From a virus (taxonomy: Duplodnaviria > Heunggongvirae > Uroviricota > Caudoviricetes): DNA of 64,000 bases. The notes under the pieces were generated by a model. The model was not told where the DNA came from. It was given only the letters and a program-made list of their open reading frames with translations, and did not search any database. This document shows, piece after piece, positions 8,627 to 27,599 of the stretch. The position numbers and the translations under genes are program-made. The stretch lies in IMG/VR virus record IMGVR_UViG_2541047712_000002; one strand, given 5' to 3'. Every line of letters starts with the position of its first letter. Position 1 is the stretch's first letter.

Positions 8627-9964
8627 TTAGTTGAAATCCAAAGAATCAAGTTCTGCTTTAAATTTATCGACAATTTTCTCAACTTCAACAACAATTTCAT
8701 CAATCACCTTTTCTTTGTGTTGATTAGAGTTGAGTGCTAAATAGGCATTTTCTAACTTATACCTAGACAGACTATTTTTAATCTCATCAGCGAATCTATT
8801 GGTGAAACCATTGGTTAACAGAATACTTCTCTCTCGGGGGGAAATAGGATACTTATCGTTGAGTTTTATTAGCCTCTTTAAATGTTTTTCATCCTTGATC
8901 ACCCTCACTTTATTACCTGCGATTCTAAGCTCCCAGCCTATAAAACCAGGTAACAAAGAGTTGAACTCAGCTACTTTATCGGCTGCATTTTCCATCCTCA
9001 GCTCAATGCTGTTTCGCATATGCATAGGTAGGTCATTAAATCTTTGAAGCAAATGTTGTCGGCAGGGGTTGTTGTAAGACCACAGAATTGCGAACGTAGC
9101 CCTTAAATGACGGTATCTTGAATCGATTTTAGGGGGCTCACGACCTCGAACCATTTCTTCAACATAAAACTCTACATCTTTTCGGTATTCGTTATCAAAT
9201 ATCACAGCAGCATAAGAGTCCAAATAATGAACTTTCGATATTGCTTCTTCAAAAAAAAGTTGGCCTTCGAAGAAGTTATACTTGCTTAGCAGGCTGTAAA
9301 GTCTCTTTGCGTCATAGGTTTTATTAGTGTCAATATTAAGGCCGAATGTAGCTATCAGCAGGCTTACATTAGGACTAATGCTGTTGCGCAGCTGTTCTAT
9401 GTAAGCTCTCTTTTCATAATCGGCTGATGACGGCGAATAGAAGTCTTTATCTAAATAATCAAGAATTAAAACTATGTGGTTAATATATTTAATGTAAACG
9501 GAGTTTTTGGTTACATGGTAATAAATAGCCTTGATGAGATTCATTCCCAGTTTTGCATTAAGTTCCCTATCATCCTGCAAGGTCTTGTTAACATCCTCAA
9601 GTAATCTATTATGCTGTTCAAGTAATATGCCGTACCATTCCTTAAAAGAGGCTTTTTTCATTTCAAGGAGTGAAGCTGCCGTCAGCCTAGTGGCCCTCAT
9701 TGCTGCCTTTGCACTATGCCTTGCCTCGTAAGCGGCCCATGCTGTGGCGAAAAATGCAAGTGAAGTGGCAAGTGTACCTATGACCTCTACGTTTTCCTTG
9801 ACGGTATCCCAGAAAATAATCATCACTGTCCCAAGTATGAGGATTAACAAAACAGGCATTTTATCAGTGTCTTTGGTTAATTTTGAAACTGAATGATACC
9901 TAATCGACCATACCATTTCAGCTAGTTTAAAGCTGTCTTGCCGGTTCTGGTGCGTCAACCTCAC
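8627..9964 (-). CDS. membrane-anchored hypothetical protein (AT-rich orphan)
   Basis: 445-aa ORF on opposite strand to all neighbours; two predicted N-terminal TM helices then a ~360-aa domain; flanked by terminator hairpins. Confidence 0.6.
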   Translation of the reverse strand: MRLTHQNRQDSFKLAEMVWSIRYHSVSKLTKDTDKMPVLLILILGTVMIIFWDTVKENVEVIGTLATSLAFFATAWAAYEARHSAKAAMRATRLTAASLLEMKKASFKEWYGILLEQHNRLLEDVNKTLQDDRELNAKLGMNLIKAIYYHVTKNSVYIKYINHIVLILDYLDKDFYSPSSADYEKRAYIEQLRNSISPNVSLLIATFGLNIDTNKTYDAKRLYSLLSKYNFFEGQLFFEEAISKVHYLDSYAAVIFDNEYRKDVEFYVEEMVRGREPPKIDSRYRHLRATFAILWSYNNPCRQHLLQRFNDLPMHMRNSIELRMENAADKVAEFNSLLPGFIGWELRIAGNKVRVIKDEKHLKRLIKLNDKYPISPRERSILLTNGFTNRFADEIKNSLSRYKLENAYLALNSNQHKEKVIDEIVVEVEKIVDKFKAELDSLDFN

Positions 9965-13295: not shown

Positions 13296-15669
13296 AATAT
13301 CTAAAAAATTATTAGCCGTTTTTATCTCTTTATATGTATCAAATGTTTACGCAGAAGCCTATTATTTTGATGATATAGAGTTGAAAACTATTGGATTATC
13401 AAAAGATGCAGGTAACACCTTATTAAAATCTGATAGATTTCAACCCGGGACTTATCATGTAAATATAGTTTTAAATAATTTGCCTACCAATTACCATGGA
13501 AAAATTCTTATTAACAATAACGGTTCTCCTTGTATCACAGGTTCGTTGCTGGAGGACATAGGAATAAATATAAGCAGGTTGGCATTCGACCATGACTTGT
13601 GTTTGAAAGAGTCTCATAAGGAAGGTGTCTTTTTTTATACTAAACCAAAAAGCCAGTCCATTGAAATATATGTCCCTATTAGTTATCTTTTATCTAATGA
13701 AAGAACATATAGCCATGGTGGTACTGCAGCTATTTTTAACTATAACATTCATGCATTAAATTCACGAGGAAAATTTGGTAACACGAATAACTACACAGCT
13801 TTTCTTACATCCGGATTTAACACTGACGATTGGATATTTCGTAACAAAACTATCGTAAGTTCCTATGATGGAAATAACGACATTAAAAACTCTGAATTAT
13901 TTGCCCAAAAAACTTTTGATGGGAGTGGTAAAACGCTAAAAGTCGGTAGTATAGATTCATTTGACCAGTTTTATGGTATGTCTTTGATTGGTTTAAATTT
14001 GAGTCCAGAATCAACATTTTCTAGTGGAATGTCCACTACAATAACAGGTTTTTCTAATGATGACTCTCAAGTGGAGATCTATCAGGCAGGGCAGCTTGTG
14101 TATGTAGGGCAAGTACGGGCAGGCCGTTATAATATTGACTCAGTACCTGTTCTTAACACTCAAACCCCTTTCGAGGTTGTTTTAGTTAATCAAAATGGAA
14201 CGAGATCAAAAAGAACAATAACAACTGCGGAGGCACTTATAAACTTAAAACAAAAACAAAGCAATGGCTTTTCATTGTCTATTGGAAAAGCGAACGATTT
14301 TAAAAGCTCAATATTTAATGAACCTGTTGTATTAACTACGAATTATGGTTGGGATACCCTTGGTAATTACACTTTTAGCAGTGGCAGCTTAATTACAAAT
14401 CAATTCTATTCATTGGCTGGCAGTGTTACATACTCATCATCGAGTAAGAATAATATTACTTTAACTAATTATGTGTCGTATTTAGATTTCAAAGATAATT
14501 TGAATAAAAAACGTATTGGAAACAGTTCAAGCATAACTCTTTCAAATCAATTTTACGACAATGTTAAAATGACGAACGCTTTTATTTATAGAACAAGTGG
14601 CTATAGAGGGATTGAAGATTTAAGCTCAGATGATTTCTGGAATTATAAATGGCAACAAACTAATAGTATATTTGCATCGTTGAAAAGTTTTGGCACCTTT
14701 GGTCTTACATATTCATTGAATGAGAGAAGTGGTCATCGTGAAAACAGCTACGGTGTGTCATGGGGAACAAACATCTATAAAGCTTATTTGAGCACAAGCA
14801 TTCAAAAGCAGCGTGTAAAATATAAAGATGATTATTCTAATGAAACTAGGTTTTATGCCCAGCTATCAATTCCTTTATCCAATAACCAAGGGATAAACTC
14901 GTCATATTCTTCTGGCAAAAAATGGAGTCGGACTGCTGTTGACTATCGGCAATATAATAGTAACACATTTAACTATGGCCTCGGTTATGCAAATGAGCAA
15001 TATGCTTCCACATCTATCAATGCAGGTTACATAGAGGCATCTAAAACATTCAGGACAACTCATGTTGGAGCAAGATACAATTTTAACCAAAACTATAAAT
15101 CACTAGCAAGTTATGCAAGCGGTGGATTACTGATAAATAATAATGCAATCACTTTATCGCCATATGAAATTGGTGACACCTTTGCCTTGATAAGAGTTGG
15201 AAATTATCCCGGTATAGAATTACAAACACCAAACGGTAAGGTATGGACTGATAATCGAGGTAATGCTGTAGCCTCTAACTTGAATCCATATACTGCAAAC
15301 CAAATTCAAGTAGTACCAGAAAACTCACCTCGTAATATAGATGTAATGCAAGGCATAAAAAAGTCGACTCCATTTAAAGGAAGCGTTAATCAAATAAGAT
15401 TTGATGCTAAGAAAGTCCAGAGATTATTGGTATATGCAGTAGACGCGCTGAATAAACCTTTACCTTACAACGCCGAAGTAGTAAATCTGGATGATAACAC
15501 AATTATGGGATTTGTAGATCATGATGGTTTAATATTCTTCAGTGACATACCATCAAAAGCTGTTAAGGTAAATATCACACAAAATCAAAGTTGCATAATT
15601 GATTTTAGCAAGTATAAAAAAACAGAAGTTAATGAAATATTTAGCACGACACATCTAACTTGTAAATAA
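13273..15669 (+). CDS. outer-membrane fimbrial usher
   Basis: ~800 aa, signal peptide, N-terminal YYFDD...FQPGTYHVNIVLNN usher motif, C-terminal Cys pair; start taken at ATG 13273 rather than the overlapping track start 13240. Confidence 0.8.
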   Translation: MNIKSRIKISKKLLAVFISLYVSNVYAEAYYFDDIELKTIGLSKDAGNTLLKSDRFQPGTYHVNIVLNNLPTNYHGKILINNNGSPCITGSLLEDIGINISRLAFDHDLCLKESHKEGVFFYTKPKSQSIEIYVPISYLLSNERTYSHGGTAAIFNYNIHALNSRGKFGNTNNYTAFLTSGFNTDDWIFRNKTIVSSYDGNNDIKNSELFAQKTFDGSGKTLKVGSIDSFDQFYGMSLIGLNLSPESTFSSGMSTTITGFSNDDSQVEIYQAGQLVYVGQVRAGRYNIDSVPVLNTQTPFEVVLVNQNGTRSKRTITTAEALINLKQKQSNGFSLSIGKANDFKSSIFNEPVVLTTNYGWDTLGNYTFSSGSLITNQFYSLAGSVTYSSSSKNNITLTNYVSYLDFKDNLNKKRIGNSSSITLSNQFYDNVKMTNAFIYRTSGYRGIEDLSSDDFWNYKWQQTNSIFASLKSFGTFGLTYSLNERSGHRENSYGVSWGTNIYKAYLSTSIQKQRVKYKDDYSNETRFYAQLSIPLSNNQGINSSYSSGKKWSRTAVDYRQYNSNTFNYGLGYANEQYASTSINAGYIEASKTFRTTHVGARYNFNQNYKSLASYASGGLLINNNAITLSPYEIGDTFALIRVGNYPGIELQTPNGKVWTDNRGNAVASNLNPYTANQIQVVPENSPRNIDVMQGIKKSTPFKGSVNQIRFDAKKVQRLLVYAVDALNKPLPYNAEVVNLDDNTIMGFVDHDGLIFFSDIPSKAVKVNITQNQSCIIDFSKYKKTEVNEIFSTTHLTCK

Positions 15670-25951: not shown

Positions 25952-26167
25952 TCAGCTTAGAGCAACGACATTTGCTGCTGCTGGGCCTTTAGCACCATTC
26001 TCGATAGAGAATTCGACCTGCTGGCCTTCTTCCAAAGTGCGGAAATTATTACTCTGAATTGCCGAAAAATGTACAAAAACATCTTTACTGCCATCAGCAG
26101 GAGAAATAAAGCCAAAGCCTTTATCAGAGTTAAACCATTTTACTAAACCAGTCATTTTATTAGACAT
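25952..26167 (-). CDS. cold-shock protein (CspA family)
   Basis: [21 protein letters not shown]...[11 protein letters not shown] motifs; ATG at 26167 with RBS, rather than the longer track ORF. Confidence 0.85.
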
Positions 26168-26471
26168 AGATATTACCTTCTTAATTTTGTGAGCCACATA
26201 GTGCGGCGAGAATTTGATCTGTATAGATTGGGACTTACTTAGGCACTTAAGGAGGAGACTCACGAAGAAGGGAAATCAGAAGATAACACTGAACTGAGAC
26301 TGCTTTACTAAAACTGCTTACATAAGGTCTGTCTTGCAAACCAACGATGCTATTAACGCATACCCCTTCTTTTCATGCAACCTTTATTTTTCAAAGATAA
26401 CTAATTTTTGTCACCATTGGTTTAGTAAACGTTAACGAACCAGACGATGCCAGACACCTTTACAGAGAACA

Positions 26472-26495
26472 GATGCCCGCCAATTGGCGGGCATC
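26472..26495 (-). terminator. terminator-like hairpin
   Basis: 10-bp stem gatgcccgcc/ggcgggcatc, loop aatt, immediately downstream of the minus-strand gene stop. Confidence 0.5.
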
Positions 26496-26496
26496 A

Positions 26497-27060
26497 TTAT
26501 GCGCATTTCGCAATATCTTTGCGGCGTTTAATCAGTTTCTCCGCAATTTGCTCTATTTCGTTGAAATCTTTCGAGACGCTGTTTCGAAGCGCCAGATTCC
26601 ATTTACTCAAAGTTCGGGCATTTTGGACAATTTGATCGCCCTCTTTAAGTCGTCCGTTATTCATGAGCCATTCAGCCACATCAGCCCAATCCCAGAGAGG
26701 AGACTGGCCTTTTATGCGTTGTACAGGGCAAGGGAAGTCGCCGCTTCCGCGCTTACCGTCTTTGAGCAACGCCACTGCCTGGCGAGACAGGTCTGTCAGT
26801 TCCGCGATATCGCTTAAGCCCACAAGAGCCGAGTCGACGGATTCAACAATTGCACCGATACCGGCTGATTCAATATTATCGACCGCAGATGCGATAGCTG
26901 CATCAAGTGATTGTGCTTCGCGGTCAAATTCTACATAGACGGAGTTTCCATATGCGCAAATTAGCGCATCGTCACAGCCGTTTTGGTACAGCGCGTCTTC
27001 CAGTCCTTCCGTCTCATACGATACGCCTGAGAGCGTCAGAGTGAAGTTATAAAGCGCCAT
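26497..27060 (-). CDS. hypothetical DNA-binding protein (possible HicB-like antitoxin)
   Basis: 187 aa from ATG 27060 with AAGGAAA RBS; C-terminal HTH-like segment; downstream partner of the small ORF. Confidence 0.45.
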   Translation of the reverse strand: MALYNFTLTLSGVSYETEGLEDALYQNGCDDALICAYGNSVYVEFDREAQSLDAAIASAVDNIESAGIGAIVESVDSALVGLSDIAELTDLSRQAVALLKDGKRGSGDFPCPVQRIKGQSPLWDWADVAEWLMNNGRLKEGDQIVQNARTLSKWNLALRNSVSKDFNEIEQIAEKLIKRRKDIAKCA

Positions 27061-27120
27061 AGTTTTCCTTTGAAGATAGTTGGACAGTTTCTGCAAAAGG
27101 CGGCTAATGCCGCCTTGAAA

Positions 27121-27345
27121 TCATTTACAACGATCAACCATTCGTTTGATCTGTTTGGCATGGTTTTCGGGATTACCCGGAGTCGACCATACGCTCATTT
27201 GGTGAGTTTTGTGTTCACCTTCTGGATTACCGCATCGCAGTCTGCAAAAACAATGTGCAGCACCACCAGCAGCTACCCAGATCCAGCCTTTACTTAATGC
27301 ATAGTCAATGGCTGCTTGAATATGCTTATTCGGATGTTGCTTCAT
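27121..27345 (-). CDS. small protein, possible HicA-like toxin
   Basis: 74 aa, strong GGAGG RBS; KGWIWVAAGGAAHCF...H pattern loosely resembles the HicA GW...GSHH signature. Confidence 0.35.
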   Translation of the reverse strand: MKQHPNKHIQAAIDYALSKGWIWVAAGGAAHCFCRLRCGNPEGEHKTHQMSVWSTPGNPENHAKQIKRMVDRCK

Positions 27346-27599
27346 TCGCCTCCGATAATAGTATTCTATTCACAGTGTTGACATCTGTCAACGGCGACTG
27401 AATTTCATCCGTTCATGCCACACCCCCATCCATCTCATGTATGTGACCTAAAGATGGTCAGCACAGCTTACCAAAATAAGACAACTAATTATCTTCGGTG
27501 ATCTCAATATCTTCCCCTGAACAAAGTTGACATGACGCCATAAACCCGTTCTCTGTTTGATATAATTGATACAGATTTTATAAGTAGGAACCTATTAGA

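Follow-up and report, generated by a model that had tools for sequence, protein, structure and literature searches.

HicAB toxin-antitoxin modules pair a small basic protein, HicA (PF07927; structures 6hpb, 6g26, 5yrz, 4p78 and 1whz), with a larger modular partner, HicB, in that gene order, and they occur on phages and plasmids. According to the overview by Gerdes, the canonical HicB N-domain is a beta-beta-beta-alpha-beta partial RNase H fold, partners with and without a DNA-binding domain are distinguished (compare Class 1 with Class 3), and the survey of HicA contexts set out from verified HicA sequences (PMC10865869). The names HicA and HicB have also been given to a gene pair of Escherichia phage Cyrano, an SSU5-like phage-plasmid, by Misson et al. 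2023 (PMC9928086) and in the ENA record OV696614.1 (108,379 bp), where the pair is CYRAN_51 ('HicA toxin protein') and CYRAN_50 ('putative antitoxin HicB'); the HicA/HicB idea for this pair is therefore not new. RefSeq calls both products 'hypothetical protein', and newer records use 'helix-turn-helix transcriptional regulator'. The pair, here gene A and gene B, lies in the 64,000-nt stretch of viral DNA analysed in this work (IMGVR_UViG_2541047712_000002, at its full length called the window), and the source of the window is the SSU5-like phage-plasmid Cyrano (pLF82) of E. coli LF82. The 1.3-kb region round the cassette is 99.8% identical to Cyrano over 1301 nt, window positions map one-to-one from Cyrano 24616 onward with coinciding CDS coordinates, and NC_011917.1 (RefSeq; plasmid 'unnamed' of E. 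coli LF82) has the same length as Cyrano and an identical protein A.

MqsRA is a toxin-antitoxin module in which the toxin gene likewise comes first, the partner joins a toxin-binding N-domain to a DNA-binding C-domain, and the operator is palindromic. The cassette shares with it a (putative) toxin-first order, a two-domain partner, a palindromic operator and one component with a Cys-based (here predicted) metal site, and differs in that the zinc site of MqsRA is in the antitoxin and its toxin is RelE-like, whereas in the cassette it is the small protein that has the Cys/His cluster, and the folds are not those of MqsRA; no homology to MqsRA was detected. Excisionases of the AlpA type (Xis, with a MerR-like winged helix; for example 8c3t, the GIsul2 excisionase, and SSU5_054) are close to the DNA-binding part of B. 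By contrast with these, B is an obligate partner of gene A, carries a ferredoxin-like domain before the winged helix and a pair of helices after it, and has as its predicted site the palindrome of its own promoter rather than an attachment-site array. By sequence, A and B belong to the same family as PDC-M06, one of 145 untested phage defence candidates, which was chosen for being embedded in BREX, DISARM, type I restriction-modification (R-M) or Hma systems and has a count of 497 in the supplementary table (Payne et al. 2024, bioRxiv 10.1101/2024.01.29.577857). Protein A matches six PDC-M06A models of PADLOC (best PDLC04383, 1.2e-19) and B matches PDC-M06B (PDLC04388, 1.3e-32), and the PADLOC cassette CAS_00046, 'Assign as candidate PDC-M06', has the same A-then-B order. 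PDC-M06 is a catalogue entry without fold, mechanism or experiment, and the present copy sits on a phage-plasmid backbone, not inside a defence system.

We consider it probable that the two genes form a type II toxin-antitoxin module that is self-contained and represses itself, and that the SSU5-like Cyrano/pLF82 carries it as a 'moron' expressed in lysogeny. Adjacent, co-oriented small genes travelling together in varied contexts, a generic trait of type II modules, were found here, and so, by comparative evidence, was autoregulation through a palindromic promoter operator. A preliminary description, made from the letters of the window alone, had proposed a hicAB-type cassette of a small gene followed by a larger DNA-binding one. 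The order it gave proved to be that of a compact two-gene operon with type II hallmarks; both reading frames have exactly the coordinates given there, the A stop codon and the B ATG are exactly 60 nt apart, and the GGAGG ribosome-binding site (RBS) before A and the terminator hairpin after B were found as described (Table 1). The program-made list of open reading frames (ORFs) starts B further out, at a TTG (27096), and we place the start at the ATG (27060) because MALYNF is a conserved N-terminus among the 39 homologues aligned. With 723 relatives of A among 50%-identity cluster representatives and 273 relatives of B (both at E<=1e-3), neither gene can be a chance ORF. Both are reported as transcribed in the LF82 lysogen, A at 30-fold and B at 14-fold above local background (Misson et al. 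2023, PMC9928086 Table 1).

Scanning with degenerate peptides through A, with one genome per species, yielded 64 genomic loci. In all but two of them the next gene on the strand of A is B or one that encodes only the B N-domain; the exceptions are L049, with both genes destroyed, and L059, in which the contig ends within B. Among viral contigs the pair was found in 58 of 58. The species carrying the pair span several phyla, and the genes flanking it are unrelated between loci and mostly metabolic, indicating that the pair moves as a unit. The length of B varies with lineage: it is about 180-195 aa in Enterobacterales and 146-154 aa in Pasteurellaceae and a Neisseria metagenome-assembled genome (MAG), where it consists of the N-domain and a winged helix-turn-helix (wHTH) without the helical tail, and in Planctomycetota, Verrucomicrobiales, Nitrospinota, Rhodothermales and Achromatium the partner is the N-domain alone (80-117 aa). 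What is conserved throughout is therefore A together with the ferredoxin-like domain. PLSDB holds the cassette in 299 plasmids (about 95-111 kb in size among the matches listed), 273 of them predicted to be non-mobilisable, with Enterobacter (81), Escherichia (80), Yersinia (63), Citrobacter (20) and Klebsiella (13) as host genera. Among complete E. coli genomes, 110 of 5426 (about 2%) carry it, always on a plasmid and in single copy, and SSU5 holds it at the matching position between dnaE and the recombination genes (SSU5_055/054; A 57% identical).

Autoregulation is suggested by a candidate operator that overlaps the promoter of A (Table 1). Within the 64-kb window the palindrome has a single match, at the cassette's own promoter, against an expectation of 0.19. 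A 6-N4-6 palindrome 35-59 nt upstream of A is present at 42 of the 49 loci whose B bears a helix-turn-helix (HTH), by contrast with none of the 15 loci without one (Fisher p=1e-9). The arms are conserved while the spacer varies, and where the half-sites change they change symmetrically, to GTTTAC/GTAAAC in Pasteurellaceae and to GTAGAC/GTCTAC in an Alteromonadaceae locus. The co-occurrence of palindrome and HTH, together with the symmetric half-site changes, provides strong indirect evidence for repression, and we conclude that B very probably represses its own operon via the palindrome.

A group of Yersinia-type copies, comprising L013 (a Yersinia pestis NCTC5923 contig) and the viral contigs L097-L102 and L104, has intact A and B and a degenerate operator (GTTGACACGCGCTCAC in L013, GTTGACAACCGTTAAC in L097, GTTGACAGCCGTTCAC in L104); autoregulation may have been loosened or retuned in this lineage.

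The way in which the cassette decays is asymmetric. At eight loci (L043, L047, L060, L061, L062, L064, L065 and plasmid pYLMB53a) A is frameshifted, interrupted by a stop codon, truncated or internally deleted and B is intact, as against a single locus with the reverse; elsewhere, L044 has A truncated at its C-terminus. Because the loci had been found through the N-terminus of A, broken copies of B were not selected against. Under a null weighted by gene length, in which B is a 2.5-fold larger target and the expected ratio of A to B losses is 0.29:0.71, the outcome of eight versus one has p=3e-4. A-first decay is the pattern to be expected if A were harmful without B, and counts as indirect support for this. 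We hold it probable that A is toxic and is neutralised by B.

On the E. coli MB53 plasmid pYLMB53a (L127, NZ_CP073940.1), at 1040..1175, an approximately 58-nt palindromic element, cttaacttccaaagggtactcccgcc...ggcgggagtaccctttggaagttaag, replaces codons 14-68 of A, leaving the promoter, the operator, the last codons of A and the whole of B intact; this resembles the insertion of a small hairpin, either mobile or derived from repair. In a subgroup comprising L085 and L004, the apparent start codon of A is not an ATG but a weak TTG that lies two codons before a CTG.

For protein A, an AlphaFold2 model (pLDDT 88.8) predicts a helix (residues 7-18), three strands (21-25, 32-38 and 49-53) and a second helix (59-72). 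In the model this order of helices and strands is the HicA topology, and 'HicA-like fold' is a defensible label. Conservation was assessed in a diverse set of 129 family members, drawn from the 150 best of the 723 representatives, and the near-invariant residues are H4, K7, W21, H31, C38, T55, P56, H62 and C73. The GW...G..AH.F pattern that the preliminary description had loosely likened to a HicA signature falls on such residues, with W21 present in 126 and H31 in 123 of the 129. H31 follows a Gly/Ser-rich loop at the beta1-beta2 turn and opens strand 2, where it may correspond to the catalytic His of HicA; a conserved His at this turn would then be common to the two families.

Membership of A in the HicA sequence family, by contrast, was not borne out. 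PF07927 (HicA_toxin) matched neither A nor any of the 129 members at E<=1, while as a positive control it was present in most E. coli-type HicA homologues of the same database; NCBIfam gave no match for A, and searches of PDB sequences (phmmer with the single protein, and hmmsearch with 42- and 129-sequence profiles) led to neither HicA nor HicB. The HMM comparison with HicA (YcfA-like) and HicB profiles that had been suggested as a check returned no match for either protein. A sequence query with E. coli HicA, however, itself failed to retrieve any further HicA structure at E<=10, indicating that silence at the sequence level is weak evidence in this family. With hhalign, A gave no usable alignment to the single E. 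coli HicA sequence (6% probability), and against a 27-sequence E. coli-type HicA profile it aligned over 17 columns only (68% probability), joining 'RHPNKEI' near the A N-terminus (RHPNKEIEaAI; window 27304..27342) to 'PRHPxxEI' of HicA (PRHPxxEIkepL; residues 36-52), which precedes HicA helix 2. This stretch does not cover the H31 region and is not colinear with the fold match, and for the latter reason it was not counted as homology; it may reflect a helix-capping motif common to both, or a past rearrangement. A similarity to the RuBisCO small subunit, seen in 14 of the 129 members, was dismissed as noise, its best value (0.0023) like all others being far below the Pfam cut-off.

Protein A also differs from HicA in having an extra beta2-beta3 loop and the conserved set C38, C-or-H48 and C73, joined by H45 or H75. 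Position 48 is Cys in 106 and His in 18 of the 129 sequences, a C-x-H tail is present in 66, the Enterobacterales subgroup has H45 instead, and both sequences that have no C38 (n=2) have no C73 either. Judging from the topology, C38, C/H48 and C73 should meet at the far end of the sheet, away from H31. Exchange of Cys for His and alternative fourth ligands are the usual signature of a zinc site, and the cluster of A is probably one. We know of no such Cys/His (zinc) site in canonical HicA.

The model of B (pLDDT 87) falls into three parts: an N-domain (residues 1-77), a wHTH (about residues 78-135) and two long helices (143-162 and 166-186), of which the last part is missing from the 146-154-aa proteins of Pasteurellaceae and Neisseria. 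The HTH of the preliminary description thus stands, but it is central and not strictly C-terminal as had been thought. The modelled N-domain has the topology beta-alpha-beta-beta-alpha-beta, ferredoxin-like, and not the partial RNase H fold that would be expected of HicB. In Pfam no HicB profile matched B, a sub-threshold CagE_TrbE_VirB (0.011) being the only hit, NCBIfam returned nothing, and none of 120 B homologues among the matches listed carried a precomputed Pfam domain. B is not HicB, and the 'HicB' label should be dropped. The RefSeq terms 'hypothetical protein' and 'HTH regulator' are under-informative. For the DNA-binding part, a match to PHROG 2620 ('excisionase and transcriptional regulator') and the annotation of SSU5_054 as 'AlpA-like' agree, and this AlpA/MerR-type winged helix sets B apart from the Xre-HTH or ribbon-helix-helix (RHH) domains of HicB proteins. 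In its modularity (N-domain; N-domain with wHTH; N-domain with wHTH and helices), B parallels HicB proteins, whose classes either have or lack a DNA-binding domain, and a ferredoxin-like, AlpA-type partner figures in none of the 14 classes of the Gerdes overview (PMC10865869). The N-domain is strongly acidic (pI 4.05, charge -11.5; stand-alone N-domain partners pI 4.4), and its charge complementarity to the basic A (median pI 9.5) was counted as indirect support for neutralisation of A by B, as was the fact that the N-domain is the one part of B that accompanies A everywhere.

In Mannheimia indoligenes (L036) a second B-like ORF (8394..8735), with 39% identity to residues 37-152 of B, is found some 2 kb downstream of the pair. 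No A-like gene was detected beside it, and it is possibly an orphan paralogue with an antidote or regulator role.

These observations can be accommodated in the following model. A single sigma-70 promoter would drive A and then B, and the winged helix of B, acting as a dimer, would bind GTTGAC-N4-GTCAAC over the -35 box and repress the operon, while the acidic ferredoxin-like N-domain of B would bind and neutralise A. In A, the Cys/His (probably zinc) clip would tie the beta2-beta3 loop to the C-terminus, with a conserved His/Lys cluster (H4, K7, H31 and H62) predicted at the other end of the sheet. The harm would come from A, which, if HicA is a guide, would most likely cut or bind RNA; that it is specifically an RNase is a suggestion we make with some doubt. 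If the plasmid is lost or another phage infects, B would be lost or titrated and A, now free, would stop growth, and the phage-plasmid would be stabilised and/or competing infections aborted, so that the likely role is maintenance of the phage-plasmid and/or exclusion of other phages. A more specific version, plausible but offered tentatively, is that A and B represent an uncharacterised toxin-antitoxin/defence family in which a zinc-clipped HicA-like toxin is held by a new acidic ferredoxin-like antidote, the latter having gained its AlpA-type winged helix in Gammaproteobacteria, and which serves as a backbone module of SSU5-like phage-plasmids for stable inheritance and/or phage exclusion. 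SSU5-like phage-plasmids are common in clinical Enterobacteriaceae. If the model is true, a conserved addiction/defence module expressed in lysogeny would help to explain how these large, mostly non-mobilisable plasmids persist, the PADLOC candidate PDC-M06 would acquire a concrete mechanism, and toxin-antitoxin biology would gain a HicA-type fold with an unrelated antidote domain and a metal site.

Other explanations have to be weighed against this toxin-antitoxin model. If the cassette were a canonical hicAB member, a HicA mRNA interferase with its HicB antitoxin as the ENA annotation has it, the toxin-first order and the sizes of both proteins would fit, and the divergence of the HicA family could hide the relationship. 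Against it, PF07927 matches none of the 129 A sequences and is carried by most E. coli-type HicA homologues; this, the silence of NCBIfam, the short, non-colinear hhalign match, the ferredoxin-like N-domain of B in place of the fold that defines HicB, and a conserved Cys/His cluster that is not known from canonical HicA all make this quite improbable. What stands of the hicAB-type proposal is the autoregulated two-gene module and the HicA-like fold of A, and what falls is the HicB partner; membership of A in the HicA family by sequence is not supported. A non-toxic regulatory pair, with B as a transcription or excision regulator of the AlpA/Xis type and A as a small zinc-binding co-factor or anti-repressor, would account for the resemblance of the B winged helix to AlpA-family excisionases and small-terminase DNA-binding domains, for the PHROG 2620 and SSU5_054 labels, and for B being kept when A decays, as if B had its own function; the one locus with an open A frame and a truncated B also points this way. 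However, the five distant lineages with an 80-117-aa N-domain-only partner indicate that the conserved core does not consist of a transcription factor, the sole copy of the palindrome in the window belongs to the cassette's own promoter, most chromosomal copies lie amid metabolic genes and not in prophages or integrative elements, and B, despite being the larger target, is almost never lost first; we thus regard a purely regulatory pair as unlikely. The cassette could instead act in anti-phage defence (PDC-M06) by a non-classical mechanism, for example with the ferredoxin/ACT-like domain of B sensing a phage product or small molecule and then releasing or activating A. Phage-plasmids often carry defence genes, both proteins match the PADLOC models, and the candidate had been picked for its embedding in defence systems. 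By contrast, PDC-M06 is a candidate only (10.1101/2024.01.29.577857), and few of the proteins encoded next to the cassette match defence models. This explanation overlaps with the toxin-antitoxin one, and the data do not separate them. As a distinct mechanism we give it little weight.

Several observations also weigh against the toxin-antitoxin model itself. None of the sequence or profile methods (Pfam, NCBIfam, phmmer, PDB profiles, hhalign) ties A to HicA. A-first loss is also compatible with an A that is merely dispensable and a B that has another job. The sole counter-example to A-first decay, the viral contig L085 (IMGVR_UViG_3300013741_000046), has a deletion at 3215..3290 that takes the RBS and first 15 codons of B and leaves the A frame open. 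The stem-loop between A and B, considered with the 30:14 ratio of A to B transcripts, may reduce read-through into B or make the A transcript more stable, and lowering B relative to A would be an awkward design for a module that needs an excess of antidote. In a pooled Pfam and PADLOC analysis of 148 neighbouring proteins from 30 loci, enrichment of the kind seen in defence islands was not apparent, the few defence matches standing among mostly metabolic proteins. A full-text search found no paper naming PDC-M06, and no experimental work was found on PDC-M06 or on a tested HicA-like system in SSU5/pHCM2 elements.

Table 1. Positions of the genes, domains and signals of the cassette in the window
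Feature	Position	Strand	Description
Gene A	27121..27345	-	74 aa, ATG start
Gene B	26497..27060	-	187 aa counted from ATG
B N-terminal domain, residues 1-77	26830..27060	-	acidic, ferredoxin-like; predicted A-neutralising part
B central winged helix-turn-helix, about residues 78-135	26656..26829	-	AlpA/excisionase type; predicted operator-binding part
B C-terminal long-helix pair, residues 136-187 and stop codon	26497..26655	-	possibly dimerisation
Sigma-70-type promoter	27363..27391	-	-35 TTGACA (27391..27386), 17-nt spacer, -10 TAGAAT (27368..27363); 11/12 consensus matches
Candidate operator	27377..27392	.	perfect palindrome GTTGAC-AGAT-GTCAAC (GTTGACAGATGTCAAC), overlaps the -35 hexamer
Ribosome-binding site of A	27349..27353	-	GGAGG, read from sequence
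Intergenic stem-loop	27097..27116	-	GC-rich, AAGGCGGC-ATTA-GCCGCCTT, then TT; between A and B
Terminator-like hairpin	26472..26495	-	GATGCCCGCC-AATT-GGCGGGCATC; directly 3' of the B stop; 10-bp stem with 8 GC pairs, 4-nt loop, T-rich tail

As for the signals in Table 1, a promoter scan of the region returned four promoter-like sites, compared with 2.2 +/- 1.4 in shuffled sequences, and the GGAGG upstream of A is kept in most Enterobacterales homologues. The intergenic region between A and B has a minimum-free-energy fold of -16.1 kcal/mol; many Enterobacterales homologues have stem-loops of differing sequence at the same place, and homologues in which A and B abut or overlap have none.

In the window, the neighbours of the cassette are replication and recombination genes, namely those for DNA polymerase III alpha, a cold-shock protein, UvsY, a gp32-type single-stranded DNA-binding protein (SSB), an exonuclease and RecA. 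The cold-shock gene, of the CspA family (25952..26167, minus strand; Pfam CSD 4e-33), lies just downstream of the cassette and is preceded by a promoter-like site (26414..26386) and a long leader; it is cspG (71 aa) in RefSeq NC_011917.1 and is absent from the ENA annotation of Cyrano, which has no CDS between CYRAN_49 and CYRAN_50. Further away, the Cyrano record has a KacT-type acetyltransferase toxin with a putative antitoxin (window 3575..4409, minus strand) and a RelE/ParE-like gene directly 3' of parA (window 4692..5719, plus strand), and both modules are listed as expressed in the lysogen (PMC9928086 Table 1). The record also has a cluster of three tRNA genes (Asn, Thr and Ser; window 14406..14653, plus strand), two of which are overlapped on the opposite strand by CYRAN_40, suggesting that this CDS may be spurious.

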